A DNA stretch of 64,000 nucleotides from Candidatus Cloacimonadales bacterium (GTDB lineage: Bacteria; Cloacimonadota; Cloacimonadia; Cloacimonadales; JAFGVF01), in contig OY759729.1 in the NCBI GenBank assembly GCA_963662585.1, forward strand, positions 1,784,234 through 1,848,233, written 5' to 3'. Below are positions 4,622 to 64,000 of the stretch, in pieces (position 1 is the stretch's first letter; the number at the start of each line of letters is the position of its first letter). The translations under genes and the position numbers were made by a program. Below the pieces are notes generated by a model. That model was not told the DNA's origin and ran no database searches. It worked only from the letters and a program-made list of their open reading frames with translations.

Positions 4622-4714
4622 ATGTGATACAAGAAACTCCAGTTTTACAAATTACTTTTAAGAGAAACATTATTATTGATAAAATACATAAACAATATAT
4701 GAAGTTATATACTA

Positions 4715-6016: not shown

Positions 6017-7010
6017 AATTTTATTAATTACAGGTGGTACAGGTTCATTTGGAAATGCTGTACTTAGAAGGTTTGTAAATTCTGATTTGAAAGAAATTAG
6101 AATATTTAGTCGAGATGAGAAGAAACAGGATGATCTAAGAAAAAAAGTTAATAATCCTAAGGTCAAATTCTATATAGGGGATGTTAGAGATATTGAATCT
6201 GTAAACACAGTAATGAAAGGTGTGGATTATGTCTTTCATGCTGCTGCTCTTAAGCAAGTCCCATCTTGTGAGTTTTTCCCAATTGAAGCAGTGAAAACTA
6301 ATATTTTAGGTTCTAATAATGTTATGCAGTCAGCTATGCTTAATGGAGTAAAGAAGCTAATTGTTCTAAGTACAGATAAAGCTGTATATCCTATCAACGC
6401 AATGGGTATTTCTAAAGCTATGATGGAATTGGTTATGGTTGCTAACTCCCGTAATGGAGGGGAAGAGACAACTTTCTGTGGAACCCGTTATGGTAATGTA
6501 ATGGCTTCTCGTGGTTCGGTTATTCCTCTTTTTGTTGAGCAAATCAAAGCTGGTAAGCCACTTACTATTACAGATCCTAATATGACACGCTTTATGATGA
6601 CCTTGGACGATGCTGTCGATTTGGTTATGTTTGCTTTTGAACATGGAAATCAAGGGGACAGATTTGTTCAAAAAGCTCCAGCTTGCACAATTGAAGTATT
6701 AGCTAAAGCACTAAAAGAATTATATAAATCAGATAGTGAAATTAAACTTATTGGTACCAGACATGGAGAAAAATTATTTGAATCTTTAGTAAATCGTGAA
6801 GAGATGCTTAAAGCAGAAGACCTCGGAAGGTACTATCGCATCCCGGCTGATACAAGAGATTTAAACTATAATCGCTATTTCTCAGAAGGGGATAATAAGA
6901 TAGAAGAGATAGTAGAATATACTTCGCATAATACGCATCGGATGGATGTGGAAGAGACTAAGGAGCTCTTGCTGAAATTAGATTTTATCCGAGAGGATCT
7001 CGGGATTTAA
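6000..7010 (+). CDS. fnlA: UDP-N-acetylglucosamine 4,6-dehydratase/5-epimerase (FnlA/CapE/WbjB)
   Basis: 336 aa. ILLITGGTGSFGNAVLRRF, FSRDEKKQ, AAALKQVPSCEFFP and STDKAVYPINAMGISKAMME are near-canonical FnlA sequence. Followed by fnlB and fnlC. Confidence 0.85.
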   Translation: MMFKNKILLITGGTGSFGNAVLRRFVNSDLKEIRIFSRDEKKQDDLRKKVNNPKVKFYIGDVRDIESVNTVMKGVDYVFHAAALKQVPSCEFFPIEAVKTNILGSNNVMQSAMLNGVKKLIVLSTDKAVYPINAMGISKAMMELVMVANSRNGGEETTFCGTRYGNVMASRGSVIPLFVEQIKAGKPLTITDPNMTRFMMTLDDAVDLVMFAFEHGNQGDRFVQKAPACTIEVLAKALKELYKSDSEIKLIGTRHGEKLFESLVNREEMLKAEDLGRYYRIPADTRDLNYNRYFSEGDNKIEEIVEYTSHNTHRMDVEETKELLLKLDFIREDLGI

Positions 7011-7014
7011 GATT

Positions 7015-7245
7015 TTTAGCCACAAATAACACGAATAAACACAAATATGAAAGAAGATTTTTAGCCACGGATATCACAGATAAACACAAATAAGAAATAA
7101 AACAAAAAAATAGTAAAATTTTGTTACTTACAATAAAATTTAGGAAAAAATGTAGAAAAGATAGCAACATAGATAATTAATTTAATTAATACTCTATAAT
7201 ATTATTGCATTTTATTTGTGTAGATTTGTGTTATTTGTGGCCAAA
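7015..7245. repeat. Empty inverted-repeat cassette 2 between fnlA and fnlB
   Basis: Left arm 7015-7047 (TTTAGCCACAAATAACACGAATAAACACAAATA). Its reverse complement matches right arm 7213-7245 at 29/33. A second left-type arm starts near 7060. There is no credible ORF inside. Confidence 0.7.
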
Positions 7246-21575: not shown

Positions 21576-22021
21576 GAACTTAAGATTTACCACTAAGTCA
21601 CAAAAGTCACTAAGAAGAAAGAATTTTTTAGCCACGAATGAACACAAATTAACACGAATAATTTAAGACAAGGTGAATAAGAATTTTTACCACAAAGGCA
21701 CAAAAGACACAAATAAAATGAAAAGAAGAATGTTGAATTGTTTAGGTGTTTAAAATTTTCAAAAAAAATAGTTATTGAAATCACCCCCTGTGTCCCCCTT
21801 GAGGCGTCGCACAAGGCTATGGAAGGGGATTTAAGAGATTTATTATGGAAGCAGGGACGCTTCCATTCCATAGGAATCACCCCTTGTGTCCCCCTCATGG
21901 AAGGGGATTTTAAGAGTTTAGGAATTAAGTTCTAGCCACAAATTAACACAAATAAGAAAAAACAATAAGAGTTTTATCAGTCTATTACTTTAAATTAAAG
22001 GATGATATTACAGGTAAAAAT
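21576..22021. repeat. Repeat-filled intergenic block: four left-type CCAC… arms plus an H1-H2-H1 hairpin triad (21779-21910)
   Basis: Arms TTACCACTAAGTCACAAAAGTCAC, TTAGCCACGAATGAACACAAATTAACACGAATAA, TTACCACAAAGGCACAAAAGACACAAATA and CTAGCCACAAATTAACACAAATAAG. Hairpins TGGAAGC-AGGGAC-GCTTCCA and ATCCCC…GGGGAT. Confidence 0.6.
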
Positions 22022-22444
22022 ATGCCAAACACAACAATAGACAAAATCAGAAAAGCCTTTAATGCAACTAAGAAGCCTGAAAAGATTAATGAATCTTTAG
22101 CAAAAGCTAAATCTATATTCGAGGAAAGTCTAAAAGAGCAATTTGTCAGGTGTGAAAAGATAGATTTCAATGATGTGGTTTTGTATGAGTATAAATCTTT
22201 TTCTAGTTCAGGATGTTATCTCTGTAATGAAAGTACTTTTGTTTTGTTGAATGTTAAAGCTCATCCTAATTTTGTGAATTACTGGAAGATTAAAACCGAT
22301 GGCCTGGCAGAAAAGATTGAGAATGCGATTGTGTTTTTTGAGAAAGGGAGTCATGGTGTGTCTGAAGTAGTGTTATCGAAGTATGAGATTGAGAAAAGAA
22401 GGGGCTTGCTGAAGCAAGAATTAAAAGATAAAAATGAAAAGTGA
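22022..22444 (+). CDS. Hypothetical protein (140 aa)
   Basis: ORF only, with no recognisable motif. Embedded between repeat blocks. Confidence 0.4.
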   Translation: MPNTTIDKIRKAFNATKKPEKINESLAKAKSIFEESLKEQFVRCEKIDFNDVVLYEYKSFSSSGCYLCNESTFVLLNVKAHPNFVNYWKIKTDGLAEKIENAIVFFEKGSHGVSEVVLSKYEIEKRRGLLKQELKDKNEK

Positions 22445-22687
22445 AAAGTTGTGGTATTGCCTTGCAATGATGATCTGAAGAAGAAAGAAGTTTTAGCCAC
22501 TAATGAACACAAATTAACACGAATAATTTAAGACAGGGTGTAATAGTGACGGGGAGACATAGAGACAAGGCGATTAAGAGATTTAATTATTTAAGAGTTT
22601 ATAAATTTAAAAATAAGAATAGAACACAGTATACTCAGAGTGGACAGATTAATAAGATAGAGTGACGGGGATTTTAAGAATTTTTAT

Positions 22688-22806
22688 GGAATCACCCCTG
22701 TATCCCCCTCATGGAAGGGGATTTTAAGAGTTTTATTATGGAAGCAGGGACGCTTCCATTCCATAGGAATCACCCACTGTGTCCCCCTCGTGGAAGGGGA
22801 TTTTAA
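22688..22806. repeat. H1-H2-H1 hairpin triad (second copy)
   Basis: ATCACCCCTGTATCCCCCTCATGGAAGGGGAT / TGGAAGCAGGGACGCTTCCATTCCATAGG / ATCACCCACTGTGTCCCCCTCGTGGAAGGGGAT. Nearly the same as 21779-21910. Confidence 0.7.
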
Positions 22807-22912
22807 AACTTTTTTCAACTTTTTTTTCAAAAGTGGACCATTTTCAGAAAAAGTGGGCCCTATAAGTATATGAAGGGTTAATAACCTTAATACTTAAAAA
22901 GGAGAAACCATT

Positions 22913-23281
22913 ATGAGTTTCCAAAAAAAAGAAAATTTAGTAGCAGTTAATGAAGAGTGTCCAGTGTTAGCAAAGGAAAGACAGAAGAAAAAAGAAGTGT
23001 GTGAATATTTAGCATTAGTCTCCAATTTATTATTACTTGTAGATGATTTCACAGAAGAATATCTAGCTGATATGAAACAATTAAGGTTTGAAGTAGAACA
23101 TTATTTATACAAAGGTATTAAAAATTTAGATCCTGATTTTCCTTGGGATGATCCTTTTTGCAAAGTAGGATCTGGAGAAACAAATAACGAAGATGTTCCT
23201 GAAGGGATGTATGAAATACTTAAAGAATATCTTGAAGAAGAAGAAATAATAGCTAATAAGCAATTAGCTTCTCCCTGTTAA
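22913..23281 (+). CDS. Hypothetical acidic protein (122 aa)
   Basis: ORF preceded by RBS AAAGGAG and followed by a strong terminator. No recognisable motif. Confidence 0.45.
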   Translation: MSFQKKENLVAVNEECPVLAKERQKKKEVCEYLALVSNLLLLVDDFTEEYLADMKQLRFEVEHYLYKGIKNLDPDFPWDDPFCKVGSGETNNEDVPEGMYEILKEYLEEEEIIANKQLASPC

Positions 23282-23345
23282 TACAATAGATTCTTAGTCT
23301 CAATGTCGTGGTTTATAAAATTTAATTAGTTTGGCCTCCTTTACA

Positions 23346-23382
23346 CTGCCGAATAAGTATTTCTTGTTCGGCAGTTTTTTTT
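23346..23382 (+). terminator. Rho-independent terminator
   Basis: CTGCCGAA-(13 nt loop)-TTCGGCAG followed by T8. Confidence 0.7.
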
Positions 23383-23420
23383 AATCTGAAAAGAACAAGA
23401 TCTTTCACACGAATTAACAC

Positions 23421-23888
23421 AAATTAAAGACGAATTTCACAAATTAAGAGAAAGAAAAGAAAAATCCTTAACACAGAGTTGTACAGAGGTTAAGAGGAGT
23501 TTCACAGAGTTTTGTAGGGTGCAAGTCATTATTCGCCATCTTAAATGAAGTTTTAACCACAAATGAACATTAATAATTAAGACAAAGTGATGGAGTGTCG
23601 GAGAGACAAGGAGAATAAGAGTTTTCACCACTTAGACACAAAGGCACTAAGAAGAGAAAGAATATAAAAGTGAAAAATGAAAAGTTAAAGAAGTTTTAGC
23701 CACGAATGAATACAAATTAAAGACGAATTTCACAAATTAAGAGAAAGAAAAGAAAAATCCTTAACACAGAGTTGTACAGAGGTTAAGAGGAGTTTCACAG
23801 AGTTTTGTAGGGTGCAAGTCATTATTCGCCCTCTTAAATGAAGTTTTAACCACAAATAAACACGAATAATTAAGACAAAGACTAAGTG
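23421..23888. repeat. Direct duplication of a ~175-bp segment (copies at ~23421 and ~23714, offset 293 bp)
   Basis: The first ~145 nt differ at 1 position. Each copy contains a left-type arm TCCTTAACACAGAGTTGTACAGAGGTTAAGAGGAGTTTCACAGAGTTT and a CCACAAAT… arm. Confidence 0.7.
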
Positions 23889-24021
23889 AAGGAGTGACGG
23901 AGAGAATTTTTATTACTAATTTGTTTTCATCATTAGTGGAATGTATTTTTTGTGTCTTAGTGTCTTTGTGGTGATAAATATTCTTGGACTCCCCTCTTAT
24001 GGAAAGGGGATTTATATGAAA

Positions 24022-24064
24022 AGACTGATTAATAGGTAAAAGCCTAATAATCAGTCTTTTTTTT
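24022..24064 (+). terminator. Candidate Rho-independent terminator
   Basis: AGACTGATTAATAGG-TAAAAG-CCTAATAATCAGTCT (one mismatch) followed by T8. It is not obvious which transcript it ends. Confidence 0.5.
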
Positions 24065-24136
24065 ATTGACAAGTTTATTGACTATAGAATAGTTAAGAAG
24101 AGAGGATTTAAGATAGAAGCGGAATATGATAATGAA

Positions 24137-24277
24137 GCACCCCCTGTGTCCCTCTTGAGGTGTCGCACAAGGCTATGCCCTCACAGGCTATGAGGGGAAT
24201 TTTAAGAGATTTATGGAAGCAGAGACGCTTTCATTCCATAGGAAACACCCCCTGTGTCCCCCTCGTAGAGGGGGATA
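24137..24277. repeat. H1-H2-H1 hairpin triad (third copy)
   Basis: CACCCCCTGTGTCCCTCTTGAGG…, TGGAAGCAGAGACGCTTTCATTCCATAGG, ACACCCCCTGTGTCCCCCTCGTAGAGGGGGAT. Lies directly upstream of the sugar transferase gene. Confidence 0.7.
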
Positions 24278-24302
24278 AATAAATTTGAGAGAAGGTAGTG
24301 TG

Positions 24303-25913: not shown

Positions 25914-27065
25914 TCCTTAACACAGAGTTACACAGAGGTCACCACAGAGTTTAACGGAGTTTTAAGAGAGTTATTATTAATAAGAATGATAGATTAAAAA
26001 AGTAGCCAAGAATAAAGATGTCATTTGGAACAGAGACTGGATAAGCTTAAAATCAGAGTTGAAGAGAGTAAGAAGAAGATTCTTAATTCCTTTAATTTCT
26101 TGGATGGTGCAGTGTTAATGATGAAATTTAAATTTAGAAAAAGATCTTTACGTTACAGATGTAAAATACTGTGGGAAATCATGTTCTGTTGTATTGTATT
26201 AAACTCTGTGAAACTCCTCTTAAACCTCTGTGTAACTCTGTGTTAAAGGAAAATTATATTAAGTAAAAGGAGGTTGCTGGTATGTATGAAGAATTAACAG
26301 AAAGAATTTTAAACTGTGCTTATAAGGTACATAGTAAGCTTGGTGCTGGTATGTTAGAGTCTGTATATCAAAGATGTTTAAGTTACGAACTAACTAAAAA
26401 TGGTATAAAGAATGAAACAGAAAAAGCAATTCCATTAAAGTATGGAGATATGTTTATTGAAAATGCTTTTAAGATTGATATCTTAGTTGAAAATTGCGTA
26501 ATCTTAGAATTGAAATCTGTTGAAAAGTTTAATGAACTGCATCAATCTCAGATATTGAGTTATATGAAGACAGCTGAGAAAAAAGTAGGCTTGTTGATAA
26601 ATTTTAATGTGGGTAGTTTGAGGAATGGGATTAAAAGATATAGCTTGTAATTCCTTAATGTAGAGTGAAGAGAAGATCCTTAACACAGAGTTACACAGAG
26701 GTCATCACAGAGTTTCGCAGAGTTTAAGAGAGAAAGAAAGAAGATTCTTATTTTTTTTAATTTATTGGATGGAGAAGTGTTAGTGATGAAATATAAATAT
26801 AGAAAAAGATCTTTATGTTAGATTTGTAAAGTACTTTGCGAAATCATGTTTTGTTATATTATATTAATCTCTGTGAAACTCTGTGTTAAGGAAAAATAGT
26901 TTGAAAAGAATATCCTTGATACAAAGTTTGAAGATACTGGTTAATATAGAAAAGTTACCAAAATTTAGAGTTTAATTTATAAAAGTGAAGAAGAGCATAA
27001 TTTATTGTATTATATTAAACTCTGTGAAACTCTGTGGTGACCTCTGTGTAACTCTGTGTTAAGGA
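25914..27065. repeat. Nested inverted-repeat cassette 4 enclosing an intact GxxExxY gene
   Basis: Outer left arm 25914-25962. The reverse complement of 27017-27065 matches it at 47/49. Inner right arm 26201-26250, inner left arm 26677-25 (26677-26725, also 47/49 to the outer right arm), and a truncated right arm near 26866-26892. The ~150-bp cores at ~26085 and ~26745 are diverged copies of each other. Confidence 0.7.
26282..26650 (+). CDS. GxxExxY-family protein (PD-(D/E)XK nuclease-like superfamily)
   Basis: 122 aa. LGAGMLESVYQRCL (GxxExxY), DILVENCVILELKSV and SQILSYMK are typical of the family. RBS AAGGAGG upstream. Confidence 0.8.
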   Translation: MYEELTERILNCAYKVHSKLGAGMLESVYQRCLSYELTKNGIKNETEKAIPLKYGDMFIENAFKIDILVENCVILELKSVEKFNELHQSQILSYMKTAEKKVGLLINFNVGSLRNGIKRYSL

Positions 27066-27094: not shown

Positions 27095-28150
27095 ATGAAG
27101 ATTTTAATAACAGGTACAGCCGGATTTATCGGCTTTCATTTAGCAAACAGGTTGCTCAAAGAGCAAGATGTTGAGATAGTAGGATTAGATGTAATTAATG
27201 ATTATTATGATTTGAGAGTAAAGTATGGTAGATTAGCTGAAGATGGTTTTCCTCTCCAGAACATTCGTTATGGCGAGATTATTCAGAGTGAGAAGCATGC
27301 TAACTACAGATTTATAAAATTAGATTTATGTGATAGAGCTAAACTCTACAAACTTTTTCAAAATGAGGAGTTTGATGTCGTAGTAAATTTGGCTGCACAG
27401 GCTGGAGTCCGCTATAGTATTACCAATCCTGATGCTTATTTAGAGAGTAATATTATTGGTTTCTTTAATATTTTAGAAGCATCGCGTCAGAATAAAATTA
27501 AGCATTTAGTTTATGCTAGTTCTTCTAGTGTTTATGGTTGGAACGACAAGCTTCCTTTCTGTACCACTGATAATGTGGATCATCCTATTTCACTTTATGC
27601 AGCCAGTAAGAAATCTAATGAATTATTAGCTCATTCTTATAGTGCTTTGTATGATATTCCTACAACAGGTCTAAGATTCTTTACAGTCTATGGTCCATGG
27701 GGCAGACCTGATATGGCTCTATTCCTTTTTGCCAAAGCAATTGCTGAAGGAAAGCCGATTGATGTCTTTAATCATGGTAAAATGAAACGCGACTTTACTT
27801 ACATTGATGATATTGTAGAAGGTATAAAACGCGTGATTTATCATCCTGCCCAGCCAATGCCAGGCTGGAGTGGTGAAAATCCTACTCCAGGAGCTTCAAA
27901 AGCACCATATAAGATCTATAACATAGGAAATAACGATACTGTATTGCTAATGGATTTCATCGAAGCTATTGAGGAAGAAATGGGCAAGAAAGCCATTAAG
28001 AATATGTTGCCACTTCAACCAGGGGATGTTCCTGCTTCTCATGCCGATGTTACTGATTTAGTTGAAGATCTAGGTTACAGACCTAATACTCCTATTAGGG
28101 AAGGGGTGAAGAAGTTTATTGAGTGGTACAAGAATTTCTACAGAATTTGA
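27095..28150 (+). CDS. UDP-glucuronate 4-epimerase (CapI/WbnF/LpsL-type NAD-dependent epimerase)
   Basis: 351 aa. ITGTAGFIGFHL, YAASKKSNE (Y-x3-K), FTVYGPWGRPDMA. Confidence 0.8.
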   Translation: MKILITGTAGFIGFHLANRLLKEQDVEIVGLDVINDYYDLRVKYGRLAEDGFPLQNIRYGEIIQSEKHANYRFIKLDLCDRAKLYKLFQNEEFDVVVNLAAQAGVRYSITNPDAYLESNIIGFFNILEASRQNKIKHLVYASSSSVYGWNDKLPFCTTDNVDHPISLYAASKKSNELLAHSYSALYDIPTTGLRFFTVYGPWGRPDMALFLFAKAIAEGKPIDVFNHGKMKRDFTYIDDIVEGIKRVIYHPAQPMPGWSGENPTPGASKAPYKIYNIGNNDTVLLMDFIEAIEEEMGKKAIKNMLPLQPGDVPASHADVTDLVEDLGYRPNTPIREGVKKFIEWYKNFYRI

Positions 28151-28540
28151 CGGAGAGACAAAGAGATGGAGATTTTTTTCGCCTGTGGCTCAAAGACGGG
28201 GAGACGGGGTGATGGAGAGAATGTAGGGGCAAAACATTTTTTGCCCAATGAATGATTAGAGATTCTGAAAAATGGACTTTTTCCAAGTCAGAAGATGGAG
28301 AGACAAAGAGATAGAGAGGGGAATTAAGCCACGAACTAAAGGTCCTTAACCCTATTTATAAAGATATAAAGATAGACAAAGAGAATGGAGCTTTGATTAA
28401 AGGTTTTCATTGAATACAAAGAATTATTAGAATGGAAAACAAGAAGATAATGATTTATGGAAAAGATGGATGTAAGAGTATTTTTCTTTCTCTCTATCAC
28501 TCCCTCTCTCCATCACTTTGTCTTTTTTTCAAGGAAATAT

Positions 28541-28915: not shown

Positions 28916-29446
28916 AAAATTATGGACATAACCCTGTAAGGATTTAATCAAATTTATATAATAAGGTCCTTGCACCTTAAATTTTCCAGTTCTCCGCTAG
29001 AGCGTCGAACCACTAATGGTGGGTTGCTTTGTGCTACCAAGAAACAGCTCCTCTGGAGCTAAAACCAATGAATTAACTCAGAATGATGCTAGCAAGAAAC
29101 CGCTCCGCTGACAGGAACCAAAATTATCTCTTTATGATACCAAGATTGAACCAAGCATATCTCTTCGCTTCGGAGAAGCGGTTTCTTGGTAGTCATGAGT
29201 ACCTATCACGAACACCTTCGCTCCGTAGGTGCGAATTTATTTTAATTAAATAGCATATTATATAATATTTATTAACAAATAATATAAATATATTTTGTTT
29301 GTATACTTTTTTACTAGCAAGGAAAAATAATATCCCTGAAAGGGATTAATAGATTAGCCTGGGGTAAGATCCTATAGGGATCGTCACCCCAGGTGCAATA
29401 TCTAAAATTATGGACATAACCCTGTAAGGGTTTAATCAAATTTATA
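28916..29446. repeat. Segment bracketed by 43-bp direct repeats, containing a hairpin-rich GC-richer core and an AT-rich stretch
   Basis: AAAATTATGGACATAACCCTGTAAGG(A/G)TTTAATCAAATTTATA at 28916-28958 and 29404-29446 (42/43). Inside, ACCAAGAAAC(A/C)GCT occurs three times, one of them inverted. Confidence 0.55.
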
Positions 29447-29463
29447 GAAGGATTAATGAGAAA

Positions 29464-32458
29464 TTTTATAAGGTATTTCGCACGCAAGGGTGCATGCAAT
29501 CCGGCAGAAGAGGTCTTATCATGCTGTAAACTATCATCTTTAGTGATTAACTGGGGTTACGGACCTTTAGTCCGTGAATACATCAGGCTGTATTTCAGTC
29601 TGTTTTATTTAATCCCTTTGGGATTGAATGACACAGGGGGTGTTTTCTTCTATGGAGTGGAAGCGTCTCTGCTTCCACATTAGACAAAAATAAGATAACA
29701 TTAGAATTTTATAAGGTTTTTCGCATGCAAGGGTGCATGCAATCCGGCAGAAGAGGTCTTATCACATTTGTTACCTTTTTAGGATATGTCGCCCTGCTAG
29801 GGCTATATGCTGGTTGTTTCCTCTAGGAGTGTCTTGCGAACACTCCCTGTTATATGTTATCCCTCCGGGATGTAAAAGGCTCGACAAGAATACAGCACAT
29901 TAAACCAGGATTAAAGAGGTCAACATTATTCACCATTCTACCAGCTCCCTCTGCAGCTAAGAAGATTTTGAAGGATTAATGAGAAATTTTATAAGGTATT
30001 TCGCACGCAAGGGTGCATGCAATCTGGCAGAAGAGGTCTTATCATGCTGTAAACTATCATCTTTAGTGATTAACTGGGGTTACGGACCTTTAGTCCGTGA
30101 ATACATCAGGCTGTATTTCAGTCTGTTTTATTTAATCCCTTTGGGATTGAATGACACAGGGGGTGTTTACTTCTATGGAGTGGAAGCGTCTCTGCTTCCA
30201 CATTAGTCAAAAATAAAATAACATTAGAATTTTATAAGGTTTTTCGCATGCAAGGGTGCATGCAATCCGGCAGAAGAGGTCTTATCAAATTTGTTACCTT
30301 TTTAGGATATGTCGCCCTGCTAGGGCTATATGCTGGTTGTTTCTTCTAGGAGTGTCTTGCGAACACTCCCTGTTATATGTTATCCCTCCGGGATGTAAGA
30401 GGTCCCGTATCAAGTATTTATTACAGCACATTAAACCAGGATTAAAGAGGTCAACATTATTCACCAATCTACCAGCTGCCTCTGCAGCTAATAAGATTTT
30501 GAAGGATTAATGAAATATTTTTATAAGGTATTTCGCACGCAAGGGTGCATGCAATCCGGCAGAAGAGGTCTTATCACATTTGTTACCTTTTTAGGATATG
30601 TCGCCCTGCTAGGGCTAAATGCTGGATGTTTCTTCTAGGAGTGTCTTGCGAACACTCCCTGTTATATGTTATCCCTCCGGGATGTAAGAGGTCCCGTATC
30701 AAGTATTTATTACAGCACATTAAACCAGGATTAAAGAGGTCAACATTATTCACCAATCTACCAGCTGCCTCTGCAGCTAAGAAGATTTTGAAGGATTAAT
30801 GAGAAATTTTATAAGGTATTTCGCACGCAAGGGTGCATGCAATCCGGCAGAAGAGTTCTTATCATGCTGTAAACTATCATCTTTAGTGATTAACTGGGGT
30901 TACGGACCTTTAGTCCGTGAATACATCAGGCTGTATTTCAGTCTGTTTTATTTAATCCCTTTGGGATTGAATGACACAGGGGGTGTTTTCTTCTATGGAG
31001 TGGAAGCGTCTCTGCTTCCACATTAGACAAAAATAAGATAACATTAGAATTTTATAAGGTTTTTCGCATGCAAGGGTGCATGCAATCCGGCAGAAGAGTT
31101 CTTATCATATTTGTTACCTTTTTAGGATATGTCGCCCTGCTAGGGCTATATGCTGGTTGTTTCTTCTAGGAGTGTCTTGCGAACACTCCCTGGTATATGT
31201 TATCCCTCCGGGATGTAAGAGGTCCCGTATCAAGTATTTATTACAGCACATTAAACCAGGATTAAAGAGGTCAACATTATTCACCATTCTACCAGCTCCC
31301 TCTGCAGCTAAGAAGATTTTGAAGGATTAATGAGAAATTTTATAAGGTATTTCGCACGTAAGGGTGCATGCAATCTGGCAGAAGAGGTCTTATCATGCTG
31401 TAAACTATCATCTTTAGTGATTAACTGGGGTTACGGACCTTTAGTCCGTGAATACATCAGGCTGTATTTCAGTCTGTTTTATTTAATCCCTTTGGGATTG
31501 AATGACACAGGGGGTGTTTACTTCTATGGAGTGGAAGCGTCTCTGCTTCCACATTAGTCAAAAATAAAATAACATTAGAATTTTATAAGGTTTTTCGCAT
31601 GCAAGGGTGCATGCAATCCGGCAGAAGAGGTCTTATCAAATTTGTTACCTTTTTAGGATATGTCGCCCTGCTAGGGCTATATGCTGGTTGTTTCTTCTAG
31701 GAGTGTCTTGCGAACACTCCCTGTTATATGTTATCCCTCCGGGATGTAAGAGGTCCCGTATCAAGTATTTATTACAGCACATTAAACCAGGATTAAAGAG
31801 GTCAACATTATTCACCATTCTACCAGCTCCCTCTGCAGCTAAGAAGATTTTGAAGGATTAATGAGATATTTTATAAGGTATTTCGCACGCAAGGGTGCAT
31901 GCAATCCGGCAGAAGAGGTCTTATGATGCTGTAAACTATCATCTTTAGTGATTAACTGGGGTTACGGACCTTTAGTCCGTGAATACATCAGGCTGTATTT
32001 CAGTCTGTTTTATTTAATCCCTTTGGGATTGAATGACACAGGGTGTGTTTTCTTCTATGGAGTGGAAGCGTCTCTGCTTCCACATTAGACAAAAATAAGA
32101 TAACATTAGAATTTTATAAGGTTTTTCGCATGCAAGGGTGCATGCAATCCGGCAGAAGAGGTCTTATCACATTTGTTACCTTTTTAGGATATGTCGCCCT
32201 GCCAGGGCTATATTCTGGTTGTTTCTTCTAGGAGTGTCTTGTGAACACTCCCTGTTATATGTTATCCCTCCGGGATGTAAGAGGTCCCGTATCAAGTATT
32301 TATTACAGCACATTAAACCAGGATTAAAGAGGTCAACATTATTCACCATTCTACCAGCTCCCTCTGCAGCTAAGAAGATTTTGAAGGATTAATGAAATAT
32401 TTTTATAAGGTATTTCGCACGCAAGGGTGCATGCAATCTGGCAGAAGAGGTCTTATCA
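29464..32458. repeat. Composite tandem array: 12 copies of a 58-bp hairpin repeat (J) alternating with two body types (A 185 bp, B 222-231 bp)
   Basis: J starts at 29464, 29707, 29987, 30230, 30519, 30807, 31050, 31338, 31581, 31869, 32112 and 32401. Periods are 243 (A) and 280-289 (B). Order: A B A' B B A B A' B A B. Confidence 0.9.
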
Positions 32459-32550
32459 TTTACTTAAGTTAATACTAAAACTCTGTGTTAAGGAACTTCT
32501 CTTATTCTTTCTTATTAGTGAAATTAGTGGATAGATTCTTCTTGCTTAAA

Positions 32551-47899: not shown

Positions 47900-47920
47900 A
47901 AAGTTATTATATTTTAACTA

Positions 47921-48823
47921 TTAATTATTAGCTACAAGTAAACCCATTGCCATACAGAGCATTTTAGTCTCTCCTGAGTCTGCTCTTGAAGGAATAAGGA
48001 TTGGTACTTTAGTTCCCATAACAGCATGAGCTACGCGATAATTACAGTAATAAGTTAACATTTTACCATAAATATTACCTGCTTCAATATTAGGAACGAT
48101 GAGCACATCAGCTTTACCACCAACAGGAGAATTAATCCCTTTGATTTTACAAGCTTCTTCATCAATTGCATTATCAAATGCTAGAGGTCCATCTACTGTG
48201 CAACCTTTGATTTGTCCTCTCTTATTCATTGCTGAAATAATTGCTGCATCAATGGTTGCTGGCATTTTGGGATTTACCTTTTCAACTGCACAGATTAAGG
48301 CAATTTTAGGGTCTTTTATTCCAAAAGCTCTTGCTACTTGAGCTCCACTATTTACGATTGCCACTTTTTCAGCTAATTCAGGTAAGAGGTTGATTCCTCC
48401 ATCACCCATAAAAAGAATCTTCTCAGGATGTTCATAAGCAAGAATATCACAAATTACTTTACTAGTTCTAATTCCAGTTTCTTTATCTAAAACTGCTTTT
48501 AAGAGAAGAGCTGTATCAGCTTTTCCTTTCAAAATAACATGTCCTTTATTCTCTTTAGCTAAGCGGACACTCACTTTACAAGCTTCAACTAAATCACTGC
48601 CTGTATCGATAATTTCGAAAGTATCAGCAATTTCTGGAGCCATAGATTGTAAAAGATGCTTGATTTTTTCTGCATCTCCAACTAGAATACTGTCACAAAG
48701 ACCCTCTGTTTTTGCTAAGATTGCTGCTTCTAAAGGAAGTTCTCCTTGAGCTCCGGCAATAATTGCTTTTTTACCTTCAATAGCCTTGGCAGCTTCTAAC
48801 ATCTCTGTAAAGTTTTTAATCAT
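47921..48823 (-). CDS. Phosphate butyryltransferase / phosphotransacylase (PTA_PTB family)
   Basis: 300 aa. Length and overall sequence are typical of Ptb-type enzymes. No adjacent acyl kinase. Confidence 0.7.
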   Translation of the reverse strand: MIKNFTEMLEAAKAIEGKKAIIAGAQGELPLEAAILAKTEGLCDSILVGDAEKIKHLLQSMAPEIADTFEIIDTGSDLVEACKVSVRLAKENKGHVILKGKADTALLLKAVLDKETGIRTSKVICDILAYEHPEKILFMGDGGINLLPELAEKVAIVNSGAQVARAFGIKDPKIALICAVEKVNPKMPATIDAAIISAMNKRGQIKGCTVDGPLAFDNAIDEEACKIKGINSPVGGKADVLIVPNIEAGNIYGKMLTYYCNYRVAHAVMGTKVPILIPSRADSGETKMLCMAMGLLVANN

Positions 48824-51238: not shown

Positions 51239-53074
51239 TTGAGACAAAATGATAATAGGATAAAGGATTTGAAAATTAATAAAGTACTGTTGATGATATT
51301 AAGTTTATTGGGATTAAGCTATCTAATAGGTGAAGAAGCAGTTCTTCACTATCTTTTAGAAGCAGATAAATTTACTTATCATTTAATTGAAAAAGAAGAT
51401 AAGCTAAATATAGATAACCTAAACTCAGATCTTTTAGATTGGTATAGTATAGATTACTTAAACTATAAAGAGAAGAAAAATACTGAAAAGATTCTCTATA
51501 GGTTAGAGTTACCTGATTCATTAGGAGCTCAAAATAGGATTTTTTTTGTAGGTTATTATACAGCTTTTAGAATTTACTATGATTCTCAAGAAATCTATGC
51601 AGATACTACTCGCTCAGAGTTTATTCATCTTTTTACTTTAAATTATCAGCCTAATGAAAAGTATCTCTACTTCCTCTATGATGAGGTAATTCCTGGTTAT
51701 CCTGTTCCTTTTTCTTTAGTCTTTTTAAATGAAGATCTCACAGATACGCCATTTGTATATTTAATTATAGAATTAATTTTTGTGCAAATGCTCAACTACT
51801 CGGTTGCTATATTCTTCTTTTTAATAGCCTTGATTAGTCTATTTCTTCTTCTGAGAAGTGCCAAATCTATTAAGAAATATGTGTTTGCTGTCTTTATTTA
51901 CTCCCTAATAATTGGACTTGATCATGGTCTGAATACCCTTCTAATGGCCTATACTGGAGTATCACCAAAGATATACTATTGGATTGATTCCATGATGTTC
52001 CAACTTTTCTTAATTATGATTGTTACGATGGCAGATTATATCTTCTCTGATGGCAAATCTAAGTTTTTACGCCTGTTAAAATACCTGATTATTTTACTTA
52101 CAGTCGTTAATTTATTAGTAACTAACTTTATCCAGTTCTTCACCTTTTTTGATAAGCTGAATTTTGCTTTATATGCTATCACTATTATCTATTTAATTAT
52201 TTATTTAATCAAGAAATTTAGATTTATAAAAGAAAAACTTAATATATTTGTGGCTATTATCTTTATTTTAGCCCCCATGCTAATGTTTGTAACTCGTAAT
52301 CTTAAGTATGTCCCTTATGTCTCATCAATTTATGTTCTTATCTCTGTATCAATTCTCTATATCTTTGTCTATAATTTCTTTGCTAGATTTAGAAATAATG
52401 AAACTATTTTAATCAATACTAAGCTAGATCTACAAGAGAAAGAGAATGAAATTCTCAGATTAGAAAAAGACCAACTTAAGAGCAGTGTTTCTCATTTGAA
52501 AGGACAGCTCAATCCTCACTTCTTATTTAACAGCCTATCAACCTTAACAGGGATTATTACTCTTGATCAAGAAAAAGCAGTTAATTATGTTGAAGAATTA
52601 TCTTCTATGTATCGGTATGTACTGCAAACCGATAGTAAAGAACTTATAGATTTAGGCTCTGAGTTAGATTTAATTAATTCTTATAACTATTTAATCAAAA
52701 TGAAATATGGCAAAAACTATTGCCTAAATATAGATATTGATGATGAGTACTTAGAGTACAAACTCCCACCTTTATCGCTTCAAACTATGTTGGAAAATGT
52801 CTTTAAGCATAACACCATAGATATTAATCACAAAATGAATATTGACATCTTTATGGAGAAAATGTTTATTGTAATTATTAATGATATTCATGAGAAAGCC
52901 TCTGCTTTCCAATATAAAGAGAAATTACCAGGTATAGGTCAGCAGAATATTACAGCTATTTACCAATACTATGGTCATGAAAAACCAAGTTATGAGATAG
53001 TAGAAAATAAATATATTGTAAAAATACCACTAATAGATAAGGATGTAAAAAATGTTAAATATACTAATCATTGA
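51239..53074 (+). CDS. LytS/YehU-type sensor histidine kinase with multi-TM sensor domain
   Basis: 611 aa. His_kinase motif LNPHFLFNSLS. The start is uncertain (TTG 51239 or ATG 51293). Confidence 0.75.
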   Translation: MRQNDNRIKDLKINKVLLMILSLLGLSYLIGEEAVLHYLLEADKFTYHLIEKEDKLNIDNLNSDLLDWYSIDYLNYKEKKNTEKILYRLELPDSLGAQNRIFFVGYYTAFRIYYDSQEIYADTTRSEFIHLFTLNYQPNEKYLYFLYDEVIPGYPVPFSLVFLNEDLTDTPFVYLIIELIFVQMLNYSVAIFFFLIALISLFLLLRSAKSIKKYVFAVFIYSLIIGLDHGLNTLLMAYTGVSPKIYYWIDSMMFQLFLIMIVTMADYIFSDGKSKFLRLLKYLIILLTVVNLLVTNFIQFFTFFDKLNFALYAITIIYLIIYLIKKFRFIKEKLNIFVAIIFILAPMLMFVTRNLKYVPYVSSIYVLISVSILYIFVYNFFARFRNNETILINTKLDLQEKENEILRLEKDQLKSSVSHLKGQLNPHFLFNSLSTLTGIITLDQEKAVNYVEELSSMYRYVLQTDSKELIDLGSELDLINSYNYLIKMKYGKNYCLNIDIDDEYLEYKLPPLSLQTMLENVFKHNTIDINHKMNIDIFMEKMFIVIINDIHEKASAFQYKEKLPGIGQQNITAIYQYYGHEKPSYEIVENKYIVKIPLIDKDVKNVKYTNH

Positions 53075-53843
53075 AGATGAAGAAATTATTGCTCAACGCT
53101 TAGTTCAGTTATTAAATCAAATACAAGTTGATTACCATCTTTGTGGCATATTAGGTTCTGTACAGGAAACTATTGAATGGTTAACCCAAAATGATCAGCC
53201 TGATTTAATTTTTGCCGATATTCAATTATCAGATGGTAACAGTTTTTCTATCTTCAAAGCTGTAACCGTTAAGTCAAAAATTATTTTCACAACCTCTTAT
53301 GATGAATTTGCCCTTGATGCTTTCAATGTCAATAGCGTAGATTATCTCCTTAAACCTATTACTGCCAAAAAACTACAAAAATCTTTTGAAAAACTAGAAG
53401 AAATGACCTTAGCCTTTGCTCATAATCAAGAAGAAAAGAGTGATGAATCAGAAGAAGAAAAAATTGCTCATCTGTTAGATTATCTAGATCATAAAGATAA
53501 AGGTTTTAGAAATCGCTTCCTAATCAAAATGGGTAACTCCTATAAATCTATTACTGCCGAAGAGATAGCTTATTTCTTTGTTTCTAACAAAACTACTTAT
53601 CTCATGACTTTTACAAAAAGAAAGTACTCCTTAGATACTCCCCTAGATGAACTCGATAAAGAACTTGATACTAAACTTTTTTTTAGAATTAACCGTCAAA
53701 TGATTGTTAATATTAATGCTATTCAAGAAATTCATACCTTCTTTAATAGTAGATTACTTCTAAATATTGATCCTTCTTTTGAGGAAGATGTATTGGTTAC
53801 CAGATCTAATATTGCCAAGTTTAAAGATTGGATGAATAGCTAA
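53052..53843 (+). CDS. LytTR-family response regulator
   Basis: 263 aa. Receiver (ILIIEDEE…DLIFADIQLSDGNS…DYLLKP) plus a C-terminal LytTR DNA-binding domain. Confidence 0.85.
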   Translation: MLNILIIEDEEIIAQRLVQLLNQIQVDYHLCGILGSVQETIEWLTQNDQPDLIFADIQLSDGNSFSIFKAVTVKSKIIFTTSYDEFALDAFNVNSVDYLLKPITAKKLQKSFEKLEEMTLAFAHNQEEKSDESEEEKIAHLLDYLDHKDKGFRNRFLIKMGNSYKSITAEEIAYFFVSNKTTYLMTFTKRKYSLDTPLDELDKELDTKLFFRINRQMIVNINAIQEIHTFFNSRLLLNIDPSFEEDVLVTRSNIAKFKDWMNS

Positions 53844-53862
53844 AAAGCAAATTTATAATTTA

Positions 53863-53927
53863 GAATGGAGAATGGAGAATGGAGAATTGAGAGACAGAGA
53901 GACAGAGAGACAAAGAGACAGAGAGAA
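53863..53927. repeat. Microsatellite block: (GAATGGA)3-GAATTGA then (GAGAGA/GAGACA) hexamers
   Basis: Read directly from the sequence. Starts 20 nt after the response-regulator stop. Confidence 0.85.
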
Positions 53928-54320
53928 GAAAAATCTACCAATAATTTCACGAATTAAGAAAATATCCTGAAGGGATTAAATAGATTAGCCCAGGGTCTCA
54001 TTTTTTGAAGAAAAATTGACCCTGGGTATGGTACACCAATATTTATTTAACCCTGTCTTGTGAAGGCGAAGCATTAGCGTAGACTCAAAGGGTTTAATAG
54101 AGAAAATAATAATTACTAAAAAATCGGTCAAATTATTTAGGACTGAACATTCACACGAATTAACGCGAATGTAGGGGCCAATTGCCATACGCCTTCTTGA
54201 AAAGTTCCCTAACACAAAGTTTTTAAGAAAAGTTTTGAGAATGTGATAAGATCTCTTCAGCCGGATTGCATGCACCCTTGCATGCGAAAAACCTTATAAA
54301 AATCTAATGTTATCTTATTA

Positions 54321-55973
54321 CTAATCTTTCCGACACCTAAGTTATTGCAAATAAACTACTAATTTGCACATCATAGCGACTCATATGTCTTTTTATCAGT
54401 TAATTATGCAATTCTGCCATTATACCGAATATCTACCTCTGTGATTTTATCTATAATTTCTTCATTTTCAAAGAATTTTCTTATCATGATATCAACATCC
54501 TTTCTTAACTCAGTTAAATTTGTGTATCCATAAGCTATTGAATAATCGATGAAGTCTTTTACTTTTTGAGTAAAAATCGTATTAATAAATATGATTAATG
54601 ATGCATCTTCAAGCTCTTCATAAAATTCAATTAATAACTGTTCCATAGAAGGATATGGTTTTTGCTGTTTTTTGTAACATAGTATGTTATAAAAAACATA
54701 CCTAATAGTCAAATCAGCTATCATAGCAGAGTATTTTGAAGAATGGCTCTGATTATATCCAAAATATTGTTTAATCTCTTTAAATACACATTCTATTGAC
54801 CATCTTCTCATATAAATTTTTAAAACTTCTATTTCTGAAAGTTGTAAATCAGTTGCTAAAATAGCCTTCCATCTTTTAACATTAGGGTACTTAAAAAAGC
54901 ATATTTTAATCTTTTCTATTACTTTTCTTTCATTTATTTTTCTTGAACTTGAAGTATCTAATAATTCAACAATAACAGATTTATATTTTATTCCGGATTT
55001 CCTATCATAAAACCATTTACCAGCTATTTTGTTTAGGGTTTTCAAATCATAATATTGACCTTTAAACTTATATTTCTGGGAACCATTTTTTAACATAGAC
55101 ACTAGTGTTATTCCAAGTGGTACAAGTCTTTTAAATACAAAGTTATAACTTGTGTTGTTATTGAACCAAGAATCCCATAATACATATTTAAAAGGTATTT
55201 TTCTCTGAATAGTGCGTTTTATCATTTTAATTACAATTTGAGTCTTCTTTTCTTTTGAGAAACGATTTCTTTGCTCAGTATGAGTGCCTTTGTGGTATCT
55301 GGGTCTTTTTGACTTTTTGACTTTTTTCTTTCCAATTTTTAATTCAAAATCTAATACAATAGCTGATAACCCATTACTCCACACTTCAGTTATGTTTTGA
55401 AACCCTTTGAAGTATTTTGATAAACAGTGATCATGAAACCAACTGATATATTCTGTCTTTTTCCCTGTTTTTACTTTCGATGTATCATCAAAAATTATAC
55501 AATTATCATTTTCACAGGAAGTATCACTTAGCTTAATAAACCTTAAAGCAACTTTATATAATAGATTTCTCCATTTATAATTAGAGTTGTTTAGCATATC
55601 ATTAATGGGTGTTTTAAATTTTGATATATTATTGAATTTTAGACCAAAATATAAGGATTTTTTATTCTCAAGAATCATGAACATAAAAAGAAGCATCAAT
55701 TCAATGATGGTATGACCTTTTTGTTTTACTATACCAACTTGCTTCAAAATACTTCCAAATTTAAATATTTCAAATAACTCTATTATTAATCCTGAATTCA
55801 AGCTTGACACTTTTACCTGTTTGTATTTTTTTAGCATATATACCTCGTTTTTTATAGTTTCGTTTATTTCCGTAAACAACTAAACTATAATCATATACGA
55901 GGTATTTTTGTCAATATCTATTTTTATCTATTTTATTGTTACACAACAACTTAATTCATGTCGGAAAGATTAG
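54321..55973 (-). mobile_element. IS4-family insertion sequence (1653 bp)
   Basis: 15-bp perfect terminal inverted repeats CTAATCTTTCCGACA. 6-bp direct duplication TTATTA (54315-54320 / 55974-55979). An uninterrupted paralogous site occurs at ~56451-56470. Confidence 0.8.
54404..55879 (-). CDS. IS4-family DDE transposase
   Basis: 491 aa. D (IIFDDTS), D (VLWDSWF) and an exact Y-x2-R-x3-E-x6-K signature (YMRRWSIECVFKEIK). Confidence 0.8.
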   Translation of the reverse strand: MFTEINETIKNEVYMLKKYKQVKVSSLNSGLIIELFEIFKFGSILKQVGIVKQKGHTIIELMLLFMFMILENKKSLYFGLKFNNISKFKTPINDMLNNSNYKWRNLLYKVALRFIKLSDTSCENDNCIIFDDTSKVKTGKKTEYISWFHDHCLSKYFKGFQNITEVWSNGLSAIVLDFELKIGKKKVKKSKRPRYHKGTHTEQRNRFSKEKKTQIVIKMIKRTIQRKIPFKYVLWDSWFNNNTSYNFVFKRLVPLGITLVSMLKNGSQKYKFKGQYYDLKTLNKIAGKWFYDRKSGIKYKSVIVELLDTSSSRKINERKVIEKIKICFFKYPNVKRWKAILATDLQLSEIEVLKIYMRRWSIECVFKEIKQYFGYNQSHSSKYSAMIADLTIRYVFYNILCYKKQQKPYPSMEQLLIEFYEELEDASLIIFINTIFTQKVKDFIDYSIAYGYTNLTELRKDVDIMIRKFFENEEIIDKITEVDIRYNGRIA

Positions 55974-57110
55974 TTATTATTGTCTTATGTGGAAGCAGAG
56001 ACGCTTCCACTCCATAGAAGAAAACACCCCCTGTGTCCCCCTCACGGAGGGGGATTTAAGATTCACGGACTAAAGGTCCGTAACCGTAACCCCAGTTCTT
56101 CAATCCCAAAGGGATTAAATAGATTAGCCCAGGGTCTCATTTTTTGAAGAAAAATTGACCCTGGGTATGGTACACCAATATTTGTGTAACCCTGTCTTGT
56201 GAAGGCGAAGCATTAGCGTAGACTCAAAGGGTTTAATAGAGAAAATAATAATTACTAAAAAATCGGTCAAATTATTTAGGACTGAACATTCACACGAATT
56301 AACGCGAATGTAGGGGCCTATTGCCATACGCCTTCTTGAAAAGTTCCCTAACACAAAGTTTTTAAGAAAAGTTTTGAGAATGTGATAAGATCTCTTCTGC
56401 CGGATTGCATGCACCCTTGCATGCGAAAAACCTTATAAAAATCTAATGTTATCTTATTATTGTCTTATGTGGAAGCAGAGACGCTTCCACTCCATAGAAG
56501 AAAACACCCCCTGTGTCCCCCTCACGGAGGGGGATTTAAGATTCACGGACTAAAGGTCCGTAACCCCAGTTAATCACTAAAGATGATAGTTTACAGCATG
56601 ATAATCCCTCTTCTGCCGGATTGCATGCACCCTTGCATGCGAAAAACCTTATAAAAATCTAATGTTATCTTATTATTGTCTTATGTGGAAGCAGAGAGGC
56701 TTCCACTCCATAGAAGAAAACACCCCCTGTGTCCCCCTCACGGAGGGGGATTTGAGATTCACGGACTAAAGGTCCGTAACCCCAGTTCTTCAATCCCAAA
56801 GGGATTAAATAGATTAGCCCTGGGTCTCATTTTTTGAAGAAAAATTGACCCTGGGTATGGTACACCAATATTCGTGTAACCCTGTAAGGTTTTATCACAC
56901 TCTTGAAATTCTCTCCATTTCCCTTGCTCTGTGACTGTCATCTCAAATATTATTTGAATTTTATTCGTAATATCATTAATGGAGCATTAAGAGACTAAGA
57001 GAAAAGGAAAGAAAAAGCAGAATTGTAGAAAAGGATAAAAGCTATAATATCAACAATTTACGAATCTAAAATCTAAAGTAAAAGATAATAATATAAAAAA
57101 GATATTGACA

Positions 57111-63686: not shown

Positions 63687-63690
63687 TTTA

Positions 63691-63725
63691 GAATTGAGAA
63701 TTGAGAATTGAGAATTGAGAATTGA
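63691..63725. repeat. Perfect heptamer microsatellite (GAATTGA)x5
   Basis: Read directly from the sequence. Begins 5 nt after the lepA stop. Confidence 0.9.
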
Positions 63726-63784
63726 AGAAAGATGAATCTATCCACTAATTTCACGAAATTTTAAAAATATCACCAAGGGATTAA

Positions 63785-64000
63785 ATGGATTCGCCCGAAT
63801 GTAGGGGCGTATTGCCATACGCCCTTTTAATCAAAAAAGAGGTAATTATCACTAAAAACTGGAAATTATTTAAGATATTCTTTAAGATTGGAGCCTTCAC
63901 TATTGGAGGTGGCTATGCAATGCTACATTTAATTGAGTATGAATTGGTGGAAAAAGAGAAATTATTAGATTATGATACTTTTCATGATGGTCTTGCTCTT
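63785..64000 (+). CDS. 5' part of a chromate-transporter (CHR) family protein, runs off the right edge
   Basis: Open frame to the window end encoding …FFKIGAFTIGGGYAMLHLIEYELVEKEKLL, the CHR-family FGGGxAM motif. The start is uncertain (ATG 63785 inside a repeat module, or TTG 63812). Confidence 0.45.
   Translation, partial: MDSPECRGVLPYALLIKKEVIITKNWKLFKIFFKIGAFTIGGGYAMLHLIEYELVEKEKLLDYDTFHDGLAL

Follow-up and report, generated by a model that had tools for sequence, protein, structure and literature searches.

A strain-variable mosaic array of intergenic hairpin repeats in a Cloacimonadales bacterium

Repetitive extragenic palindromes (REPs) are palindromes of 20-40 bp that often occur in more than 100 copies per genome and are associated with a gene for a REP-associated tyrosine transposase (RAYT), a Y1 transposase. 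BOX elements of Streptococcus pneumoniae have the modular structure boxA-(boxB)n-boxC, with a fixed module order, and are not known to form multi-kilobase arrays. For the Cloacimonadota, abundant uncultured syntrophs of anaerobic digesters, a full-text literature search on repeats or non-coding RNAs of Cloacimonas or the phylum returned nothing relevant. At one end, the REP palindrome bears a GTAG or CGTC tag that is conserved and unpaired (PMC3733652), and in bacterial interspersed mosaic elements (BIMEs) REPs stand in alternating orientation, separated by linker motifs (PMC2817692). Two other systems bear on the locus described here: the REPINs (REP doublets forming hairpins) of Bertels and Rainey 2011 (PMC3116915) and the Acido-Lenti-1 RNA motif, Rfam RF01687, of Weinberg et al. 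2010 (PMC2864571). The present analysis concerns array 2 (53945-56896), a series of repeated hairpin modules in a 64-kb stretch of the genome of a Candidatus Cloacimonadales bacterium (contig OY759729.1; hereafter the window, to which positions refer unless a locus is named), together with its relatives, array 1 and a third locus after the gene lepA.

On balance, we read array 2 as a non-coding mosaic tandem array of a Cloacimonadota family of intergenic hairpin repeats, similar to BIMEs and REPs, that expands and exchanges its modules by recombination and whose elements would function as hairpins at transcript 3' ends. Apart from what its hairpins do, the array itself probably serves no dedicated function.

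Module composition and strain variability

Repeats were called with a repeat finder and BLAST, copies of the element P with nhmmer and a P profile, and arrays of short words with Tandem Repeats Finder (TRF). Array 2 consists of three reverse-complement J copies, two full and one partial C modules, three A-like bodies carrying the H1 hairpin (A*) and one insertion sequence (IS; Table 1). The J copies reported by the first-pass annotation were confirmed, at 91-97% identity to the J copies of array 1, all 12 of which are on the plus strand, and inverted matches of 116-139 nt at 94-97% identity connect the two arrays, including 56379-56517 and 56541-56656 in the region of the second A* body. The proposed swap of an A segment for H1 also held: in an explicit alignment, 51 nt of the array-1 body, comprising a terminator-like CAGGCTG..CAGTCTG hairpin with a T-run and AATCCCTTTGGGATT, are replaced by 24 nt carrying CCCCCTCACGGAGGGGG, found at 56037, 56517 and 56733 in array 2. 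J and A* together make up a 216-bp repeat. The C module does occur twice, 2139 bp apart (53945-54243 and 56084-56382, 98% identical), with the described motif GAATGTAGGGGCC(A/T)ATTGCCATACGCC at 54167 and 56306, and subtraction of the IS (1653 bp) and of its 6-bp duplication gives the predicted native period of about 480 bp; the loop of its hairpin hp2, however, has 20 nt and not 21. Two C+J units are full, as had been stated, and to these must be added the partial C (its first ~110 nt) at the right end of array 2 and a C-like fragment after lepA. The claim that C is absent from array 1 is correct for the non-P part and wrong for the first ~110 nt, the element P, which forms the leader of that array.

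All modules are intergenic and built of stem-loops of 13-40 nt. No open reading frame (ORF) of at least 100 aa is found in either array; one of 96 aa over C+J matches no family and includes the 31-nt indel by which these C copies differ from those of the sister strain described below, 31 not being a multiple of three. The folding z-scores of the modules are -3 to -5.5, as against about 0 for coding controls, and their G+C content is 38-43%, as against ~31% for the genome and likewise ~31% for the window. The whole window has no match to Rfam at the gathering threshold, and E-value scans of both arrays, one 531-bp unit and related loci yielded noise only, except for a lead to Acido-Lenti-1.

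A sister strain (ENA ERZ25042269 ctg13228c, 3.12 Mb) was found by a search for ArsP homologues, and two 21-kb loci of it (L025 and L026) bring the coverage of the species, with the 64-kb window, to ~106 kb. Its flanks are 98.5-99.5% identical to the window, and every compared locus differs in module content and copy number. At locus 2, the site of array 2, the intergenic space measures ~1.0 kb in the sister strain versus 3.3 kb in the window and holds one J and one K, a second connector, versus three J and 2.3 C. Orthology is confined to the right-hand part (a1-J-A*-P); on its left, the sister locus has K in place of J and neither a P-bearing C nor the IS. At locus 3, just beyond the window end, the sister strain carries an inverted 318-bp tandem array of C and K, the C units of which are 96-97% identical to those of array 2 except for a 31-nt insert that the window copies have in the loop of hairpin hp3; a stretch similar to this insert adjoins P in a metagenome locus (L015 9700-9734). 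The match of C to an inverted locus, with the gene order unchanged, suggests that C was copied, not inverted. Array 1 of the sister strain comprises a duplicated leader and P, 2 J, 1 K, 1.5 B and no A, although A is present at its locus 2, as compared with 12 J, 5 A and 6 B in the window. A strain-specific indel of ~95 nt in B lies between GCTGC direct repeats, apparently a signature of slippage. The module differences between strains that are ~99% identical indicate that module exchange and copy-number change are real and very recent. The first-pass idea of hairpin modules that are interchangeable and occur at several loci, in either orientation, is thereby borne out, since the relative orientation of P and J differs between the arrays and the sister content differs everywhere.

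Elements and connectors of the family

Other parts of that annotation need revision. Its modules turned out not to be elementary units, since C, A and A* are composites of smaller elements, namely P, H and a GTAG-tagged palindrome. It also took J for the universal joint. The connector K carries the same 22-nt core, TCCGRCAGAAGAGRTCTTATCA, behind unrelated hairpins, in the sister strain (GGCGGAGAGAATCTCCACCG and CATTGCGCGGCAATG) and in other taxa, so that, judging from the sequences, the constant joint is the core common to J and K rather than the whole of J; furthermore, some breakpoints lie elsewhere, inside hairpin loops (the 31-nt insert in C hp3 and the ~95-nt indel in the B hairpin). The J core has 15 matches in the window versus 0 expected, and its 22-nt pattern has no match in 185,579 species-representative genomes, JGI metagenomes and IMG/VR viral contigs. 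A 17-nt core gave eight viral matches, all judged to be chance: seven have no hairpin context, and the eighth (L030) is preceded only by an unrelated palindrome in a contig of 47% GC. K followed by a core-like sequence occurs singly in L015, and K with the core in the viral contig L039, cut off by the locus end. In L016, the core stands behind a different hairpin and runs straight into the middle of a P element, so that here again it lies at a mosaic boundary.

The element P, the first ~110 nt of C, contains three hairpins: hp1 (ATCCCnnnGGGAT), followed by the linker TAATAGATTAG, a two-level hp2, and hp3 (AACCCTGTAAGGGTT). Its copies in the window start at 29331, 53963, 56104 and 56794. Outside this species, one further Cloacimonadales genome (L003) contains P, and so do eight metagenome loci (L011, L012, L015, L016, L018, L019, L020 and L022), most of which come from a single sample; L029 has a partial copy. 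In an alignment of 20 sequences, hp2 (CG 12/UA 7; AU 10/GC 9) and the inner stem show compensatory changes, a covariation that supports the pairing of hp2. Relative to neighbouring genes, P is found pointing either way, and in L003, L012 and L019 it forms tail-to-tail inverted doublets with spacers of 37-43 nt. On the minus strand, hp1 and the linker align to Acido-Lenti-1 at 18.1-21.4 bits; the window copies, among them the P part of the first C (nhmmer E = 4e-15; sub-threshold match at 53963-53995) and the terminal P (21.4 bits at 56792-56824), thus fall short of the 37-bit gathering score. L022 has a bona fide Acido-Lenti-1 at 34-79 (46.6 bits), ~300 nt from a P copy.

Two side observations concern the surroundings of P. 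The 20-mer TAACCCTGTAAGGRTTTAAT of hp3 is also found in the unrelated contigs L010, L013, L014, L021, L023 and L024; in four contigs from three metagenomes it is part of an identical hairpin-rich stretch of ~100 nt, which has no Rfam family match and lies ~90 nt from the contig end in three of the four. A motif CCACCA(G/A)ACTTGAACTTGAGCC occurs 100-150 nt from P in four contigs of other Cloacimonadales (L003 21100-21125, L015 9838-9862, L016 2365-2390 and L019 about 1845).

H is an element of ~75 nt (GGAAGCAGAGACGCTTCC ... CACCCCCTGTGTCCCCCTCnnnGAGGGGGAT) to which the H1 hairpin of A* belongs. Single copies stand between co-directional genes at 21.8-24.3 kb (four copies) and in an IMG/VR viral contig (L007), and all these non-array copies are oriented like the flanking genes. 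The intergenic-rich region 21600-24290 around the four copies also holds two small ORFs without family match (22022-22444 and 22913-23281) and a related 'CCCCCTTGAGGCGTCGCACAAGGCTATG' element, which recurs in L007 at 4680-4740.

The motif beginning GAATGTAGGGGCC corresponds to a GTAG-tagged palindrome that is intact after lepA, where TTTT follows it as in an intrinsic terminator. The GTAG tag was found in this one module, GTAGGGGCSTATTGCCATACGCC, at 54171, 56310 and 63801, and neither GTAG nor CGTC is present in the hairpins of J, K, H, P and a1. Terminator-like pieces are GTAGGGGCGTATTGCCATACGCCC with TTTT directly after lepA and, in A, CAGGCTG..CAGTCTG with TTTTATTT; a terminator scan of the array-1 region gave 18 terminator-like sites versus 3.2 expected. 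As to promoters, the C motif AAAAAATCGGTCAAATTATTTAGGACTGAACAT, also present in L022 and L025, reads on the minus strand as a promoter-like TTGACC-17-TATTTT directed into P, in the orientation of Acido-Lenti-1; it recurs beside hp3 in C units of both strains and, in weaker form, in L022. No consensus sigma-70 site was found in J, and no motifs of the Bacteroidetes promoter type were found by eye. A putative promoter at the B-to-J joints, TTGAAG-16-TATAAG, was rejected because it lacks the invariant T of the -10 hexamer.

Features of the locus and its genomic setting

Table 1. Features of array 2 and related loci in the window
Feature	Position	Strand	Description
Array 1	29331-32459	+	P leader 29331-29445, then 12 J alternating with 5 A and 6 B; period 531
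Word array	53862-53927	+	GAGAATGG x3, GAGAGACA x5; directly 3' of the LytTR response-regulator stop codon; TRF
Conserved spacer	53928-53962	+	AAAAATCTACCAATAATTTCACGAATTAAGAAAAT; between word array and P; 81% identity to 63726-63796; also L025 18500-18530
C copy 1, P part	53963-54056	+	hp1 ATCCTGAAGGGAT, linker TAAATAGATTAG, hp2 CCCAGGGTC-20 nt-GACCCTGGG, 5' half of hp3
31-nt insert in hp3 loop of P	54057-54087	+	CTTGTGAAGGCGAAGCATTAGCGTAGACTCA; gap between BLAST segments relative to sister-strain C units
C copy 1, remainder	54088-54243	+	AAAAAATCGGTCAAATTATTTAGGACTGAACAT motif, CACGAAT words, GTAG-tagged palindrome 54171-54193, C tail
J copy 1	54244-54301	-	Reverse complement of array-1 J; 22-nt core 54244-54265
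A* body 1, tail	54302-54320	-	AATCTAATGTTATCTTATTA; cut by IS; left TTATTA duplication 54315-54320; compared with intact 56441-56465
IS4-family IS	54321-55973	-	1653 bp; 15-bp perfect terminal inverted repeats CTAATCTTTCCGACA; 6-bp TTATTA duplication
A* body 1, rest	55974-56096	-	Right duplication 55974-55979, H 55990-56061 (H1 56037-56053), a1 fragment CGGACTAAAGGTCCG, short joint to P
C copy 2	56097-56382	+	P part 56104-56195, 31-nt insert 56196-56226, remainder 56227-56382, GTAG palindrome 56310-56332
J copy 2	56383-56440	-	Repeat finder, BLAST, core search
A* body 2	56441-56598	-	Tail, H 56470-56541 (H1 56517-56533), complete a1
J copy 3	56599-56656	-	Core variant ..GAGGGATTATCA; ortholog of the only J at locus 2 of the sister strain (L025 9118-9175)
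A* body 3	56657-56786	-	H1 56733-56749
Terminal P	56787-56896	+	Intact hp3 AACCCTGTAAGGTT; partial third C copy; nhmmer E = 1e-20; orthologous to L025 9311-9414
Third family locus, 3' of lepA	63688-63830	+	Word array, spacer, 5' part of P, GTAGGGGCGTATTGCCATACGCCC, then TTTT (terminator-like)

The IS in array 2 encodes a transposase (54404-55879, minus strand) with the Pfam domain DDE_5 and a score of 271.7 bits against NCBIfam NF049925 (cutoff 250), and its assignment to the IS4 family is supported by the family model, the inverted ends, the target duplication and the evidence of mobility. A copy in the sister strain, 99.6% identical, occupies another site (L025 1076-2739), which is empty in the window (TATTAA, 47919-47924); the IS is therefore currently mobile in this species. 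It is a later and unrelated insertion into one A* body, a passenger and not a part of the repeat family.

The low-complexity arms that had been suggested to bracket the locus fared unevenly. The left one is real, but it belongs to a recurring leader module, with homologues at 63688-63732 and L025 18560-18600 and a shorter version at the same site in the sister strain; the right one (56905-56945) is ordinary unique sequence that is kept in the sister strain. Nor do such arrays delimit this locus in particular, since short-period word arrays occur at many other window positions. Those with words of 7-10 nt, mostly intergenic, lie at 596-630, 1047-1109, 1538-1567, 7009-7097, 23409-23447, 26201-26242, 26683-26724, 27018-27059, 53862-53926 and 63690-63725 and use AAATCAAC, CACAAATAAA, ACACAGAGTT, GAGAATGG, GAGAGACA and AGAATTG; similar words are present in the Cloacimonadota phage contig L009 at 6780-6810. 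The locus after lepA is 135 nt longer in the sister strain, where it includes hp2, hp3 and the promoter-like motif. Array 1 is preceded by a leader of ~375 nt (28955-29330) that is strongly structured (z = -5.0, plus strand) and contains repeated CAAGAAACNGCTCC hairpins; in the sister strain (L026 12794-13757) this leader and P are tandemly duplicated, with an extra internal duplication of 55 nt.

Array 2 is flanked on the left by the genes of a LytS/LytTR two-component pair (51239-53843) and on the right by an arsR-arsP operon (from 57113), all on the plus strand. The family scan covered 29 of the 56 window ORFs of at least 100 aa (22-63.7 kb); these are ordinary chromosomal genes, except for the IS transposase and two small ORFs without family match, and include no recombinase, reverse transcriptase, Cas protein or Y1 transposase. 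The window RNase II is 68-79% identical to proteins of Candidatus Cloacimonadales metagenome-assembled genomes (MAGs). The array adjoining its gene is absent in four other Cloacimonadales genomes, and the array upstream of arsR is absent in two related species, where synteny also differs. In one other Cloacimonadales genome, a tandem repeat of 105-106 nt in ~5 copies (L003 7093-7562) stands upstream of the RNase II gene; its sequence is unrelated to J, A, B and C. Elsewhere in the window, a gene of the GxxExxY/PDDEXK_3 nuclease family (26282-26650) is flanked, like a small cassette, by 144-nt direct repeats (26073-26216 and 26738-26881, 86% identical). The sister strain has an extra gene for a 133-aa 23S_rRNA_IVP (four-helix-bundle) protein between the epimerase and VanZ genes (L026 14352-14753); the window counterpart (28150-28457) holds only ~300 bp of intergenic sequence.

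Competing explanations and known systems

Several identities were considered and rejected. A CRISPR array does not fit because the 'spacers' A, B and C are themselves repeated, the sole CRISPR-type match is an 18.6-bit chance hit and the scanned ORFs contain no cas domains. For an integron cassette array, an integrase encoded nearby and ORFs in the units are missing; for a retroelement, the ORFs scanned contain no reverse transcriptase. Miniature inverted-repeat transposable elements (MITEs) were dismissed since neither module ends nor strain-specific indels have terminal inverted repeats or duplications, which only the IS possesses. A replication origin is unlikely, as the GC skew does not switch.

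Under the favoured reading of array 2 as a recombining mosaic of intergenic hairpin repeats, the building blocks are short GC-rich stem-loops, i.e. P, H, a1, the GTAG-tagged palindrome and the connectors J and K, which this genome, its relatives and viral contigs also contain as single elements behind genes. As with REP elements, the most likely task of these single elements would be to serve as hairpins at the 3' end of transcripts, terminating or stabilising the RNA; such a role is suggested by the constant sense orientation of H between genes, the GTAG palindrome with TTTT after lepA, the A hairpin with its T-run and the excess of terminator-like sites in the array-1 region. The short segments that they share, such as the 22-nt core and CCCTnnAAGGG hairpins, would allow slippage, unequal crossing-over and ectopic gene conversion. 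By recombination of this kind, elements would be fused into A, A*, B and C, modules would be copied from one locus to another in either orientation, and their tandem copies would be multiplied or reduced. Several points weigh against this reading. The terminator scan found no site in array 2. The modules follow each other head to tail, unlike the alternating orientation of BIMEs. A site-specific process, as opposed to general recombination, could explain why the core is strictly conserved at joints and recurs in two or three other taxa, and the conservation of the promoter-like site of C within the species fits an sRNA (small RNA) gene better than a passive repeat. Finally, no copies of J, A and B were detected outside this species, so that conservation offers no guide to a selfish or functional origin of these parts.

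The explanation that array 2 is a diverged inverted segmental duplicate of array 1, without module exchange, would account for J and the flanking A pieces being 94-97% identical between the arrays in inverted orientation, but it is refuted: J is inverted between the two loci whereas P keeps its orientation; array 2 contains no B, and array 1 has nothing of C outside P; the sister strain carries A at locus 2 and none in array 1; and the C units match locus 3 of the sister strain better than anything in array 1. A rather unlikely but more substantial alternative is a tandem array of sRNA genes, in which a structured sRNA would be transcribed from every C unit, perhaps also from every J-A or J-B unit, and the copy number would set its dosage. 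TTGACC-17-TATTTT would then drive an RNA of ~110-140 nt, the reverse complement of P and an expanded relative of Acido-Lenti-1. The alignment of the P linker and hp1 to that motif, the true member close to P in L022, the compensatory base changes in P across species and the recurrence of the promoter-like motif in both strains all agree with this, as do the GC-rich and strongly structured modules, which are typical of structured RNAs in AT-rich genomes. The window P copies nevertheless fail the Rfam gathering score, both orientations and tail-to-tail inverted doublets are typical of repeats and not of genes, J has no consensus sigma-70 site, array content differs wildly between near-identical strains, and J, A and B have no homologues elsewhere. 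Moreover, the modules give no strand signal: the folding z-scores are equal on both strands, the count of G.U versus C.A pairs in P (43 to 4) is dominated by the invariant closing G-T and doubtful inner pairs, and the hairpins of J and a2 give contradictory strand signals.

Less probable again, and in our view quite doubtful, is that the modules are non-autonomous mobile elements (REPIN-like, MITE-like or similar to palindrome-associated transposable elements, PATEs) moved in trans by a transposase encoded elsewhere, with the J/K hairpin and the 22-nt core as the recognised end and arrays arising by repeated insertion beside an existing core. The core indeed lies exactly at module boundaries, following three unrelated hairpins in the two strains and L016, and core or core-like sequence follows the K hairpin in L039 and L015; the inverted P doublets resemble REPINs, the GTAG-tagged palindrome carries a hallmark of RAYT-mobilised REPs (PMC3733652), and modules are present in viral contigs. 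Against transposition, no target-site duplications or terminal inverted repeats were found at any module or strain-specific indel, the one clear-ended indel looks like slippage between 5-bp direct repeats, most hairpins carry neither tag, and neither the scanned window ORFs nor the genes called in the two sister-strain loci include a Y1, RAYT or other candidate transposase. A further long shot is that the arrays are banks of expressed structured RNAs (P or Acido-Lenti-1-like, J/K-core and H units) whose strain-specific reshuffling and change in copy number are selected and whose hairpins are shared with Cloacimonadota phages (H in L007, K and core in L039). The advantage could lie, for instance, in the RNAs serving as decoys or sponges for a hairpin-binding factor encoded by phage or host, with the core as a processing or recombination site; if so, they would represent a new kind of modular RNA locus and the first functional context for Acido-Lenti-1.

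The strain-variable array is a new example of mosaic intergenic repeats and reveals no new biological mechanism. Its significance lies in showing that the intergenic DNA of Cloacimonadota draws on a stock of hairpin elements common to the clade, from which recombination builds large arrays. Because these arrays differ between strains that are ~99% identical, they are useful strain markers and a likely cause of breaks in MAG assemblies. In addition, the link of P to the orphan Rfam motif Acido-Lenti-1 supplies a genomic context and numerous new sequences with which the role of that motif could be worked out.

Of the described systems, Acido-Lenti-1 resembles the reverse complement of P, which likewise consists of a hairpin, a linker of ~12 nt (GCUAAUcUAUuu) and a 5-bp hairpin with a small loop (PMC2864571). 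The P linker and the second hairpin align well to the conserved motif linker CUAAUuUAUgcC and its hairpin, whereas the first hairpin is replaced by the long two-level hp2 and hp3 is extra; the strand of P is putative. BOX elements share with this family the modular, non-coding and intergenic character, a variable number of internal modules and a strong predicted secondary structure, but the present family has no fixed module order, forms multi-kilobase arrays and is unrelated in sequence and host phylum. The inverted P doublets with a short spacer in other Cloacimonadales recall REPINs (PMC3116915); their arm, however, measures ~105 nt rather than ~20-25 nt, the P copies of the window are single or within tandem units, and no RAYT is known. 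The greatest likeness is to REPs and BIMEs, which are also extragenic, lie mostly after genes and join short GC-rich imperfect palindromes and linkers in mosaic clusters of variable copy number (PMC3333891, PMC2817692, PMC3733652); the GTAG tag on GTAGGGGCSTATTGCCATACGCC, the variability between strains and the presumed role at transcript 3' ends add to the resemblance. The modules here are, on the other hand, 60-300 nt long and arranged head to tail in both arrays and in those of the sister strain, most hairpins are untagged, the sequences are unrelated, no RAYT was found among the genes covered and the Cloacimonadota were not among the phyla surveyed. In its behaviour the family is closest to REP/BIME mosaics, of which it does not appear to be a member.

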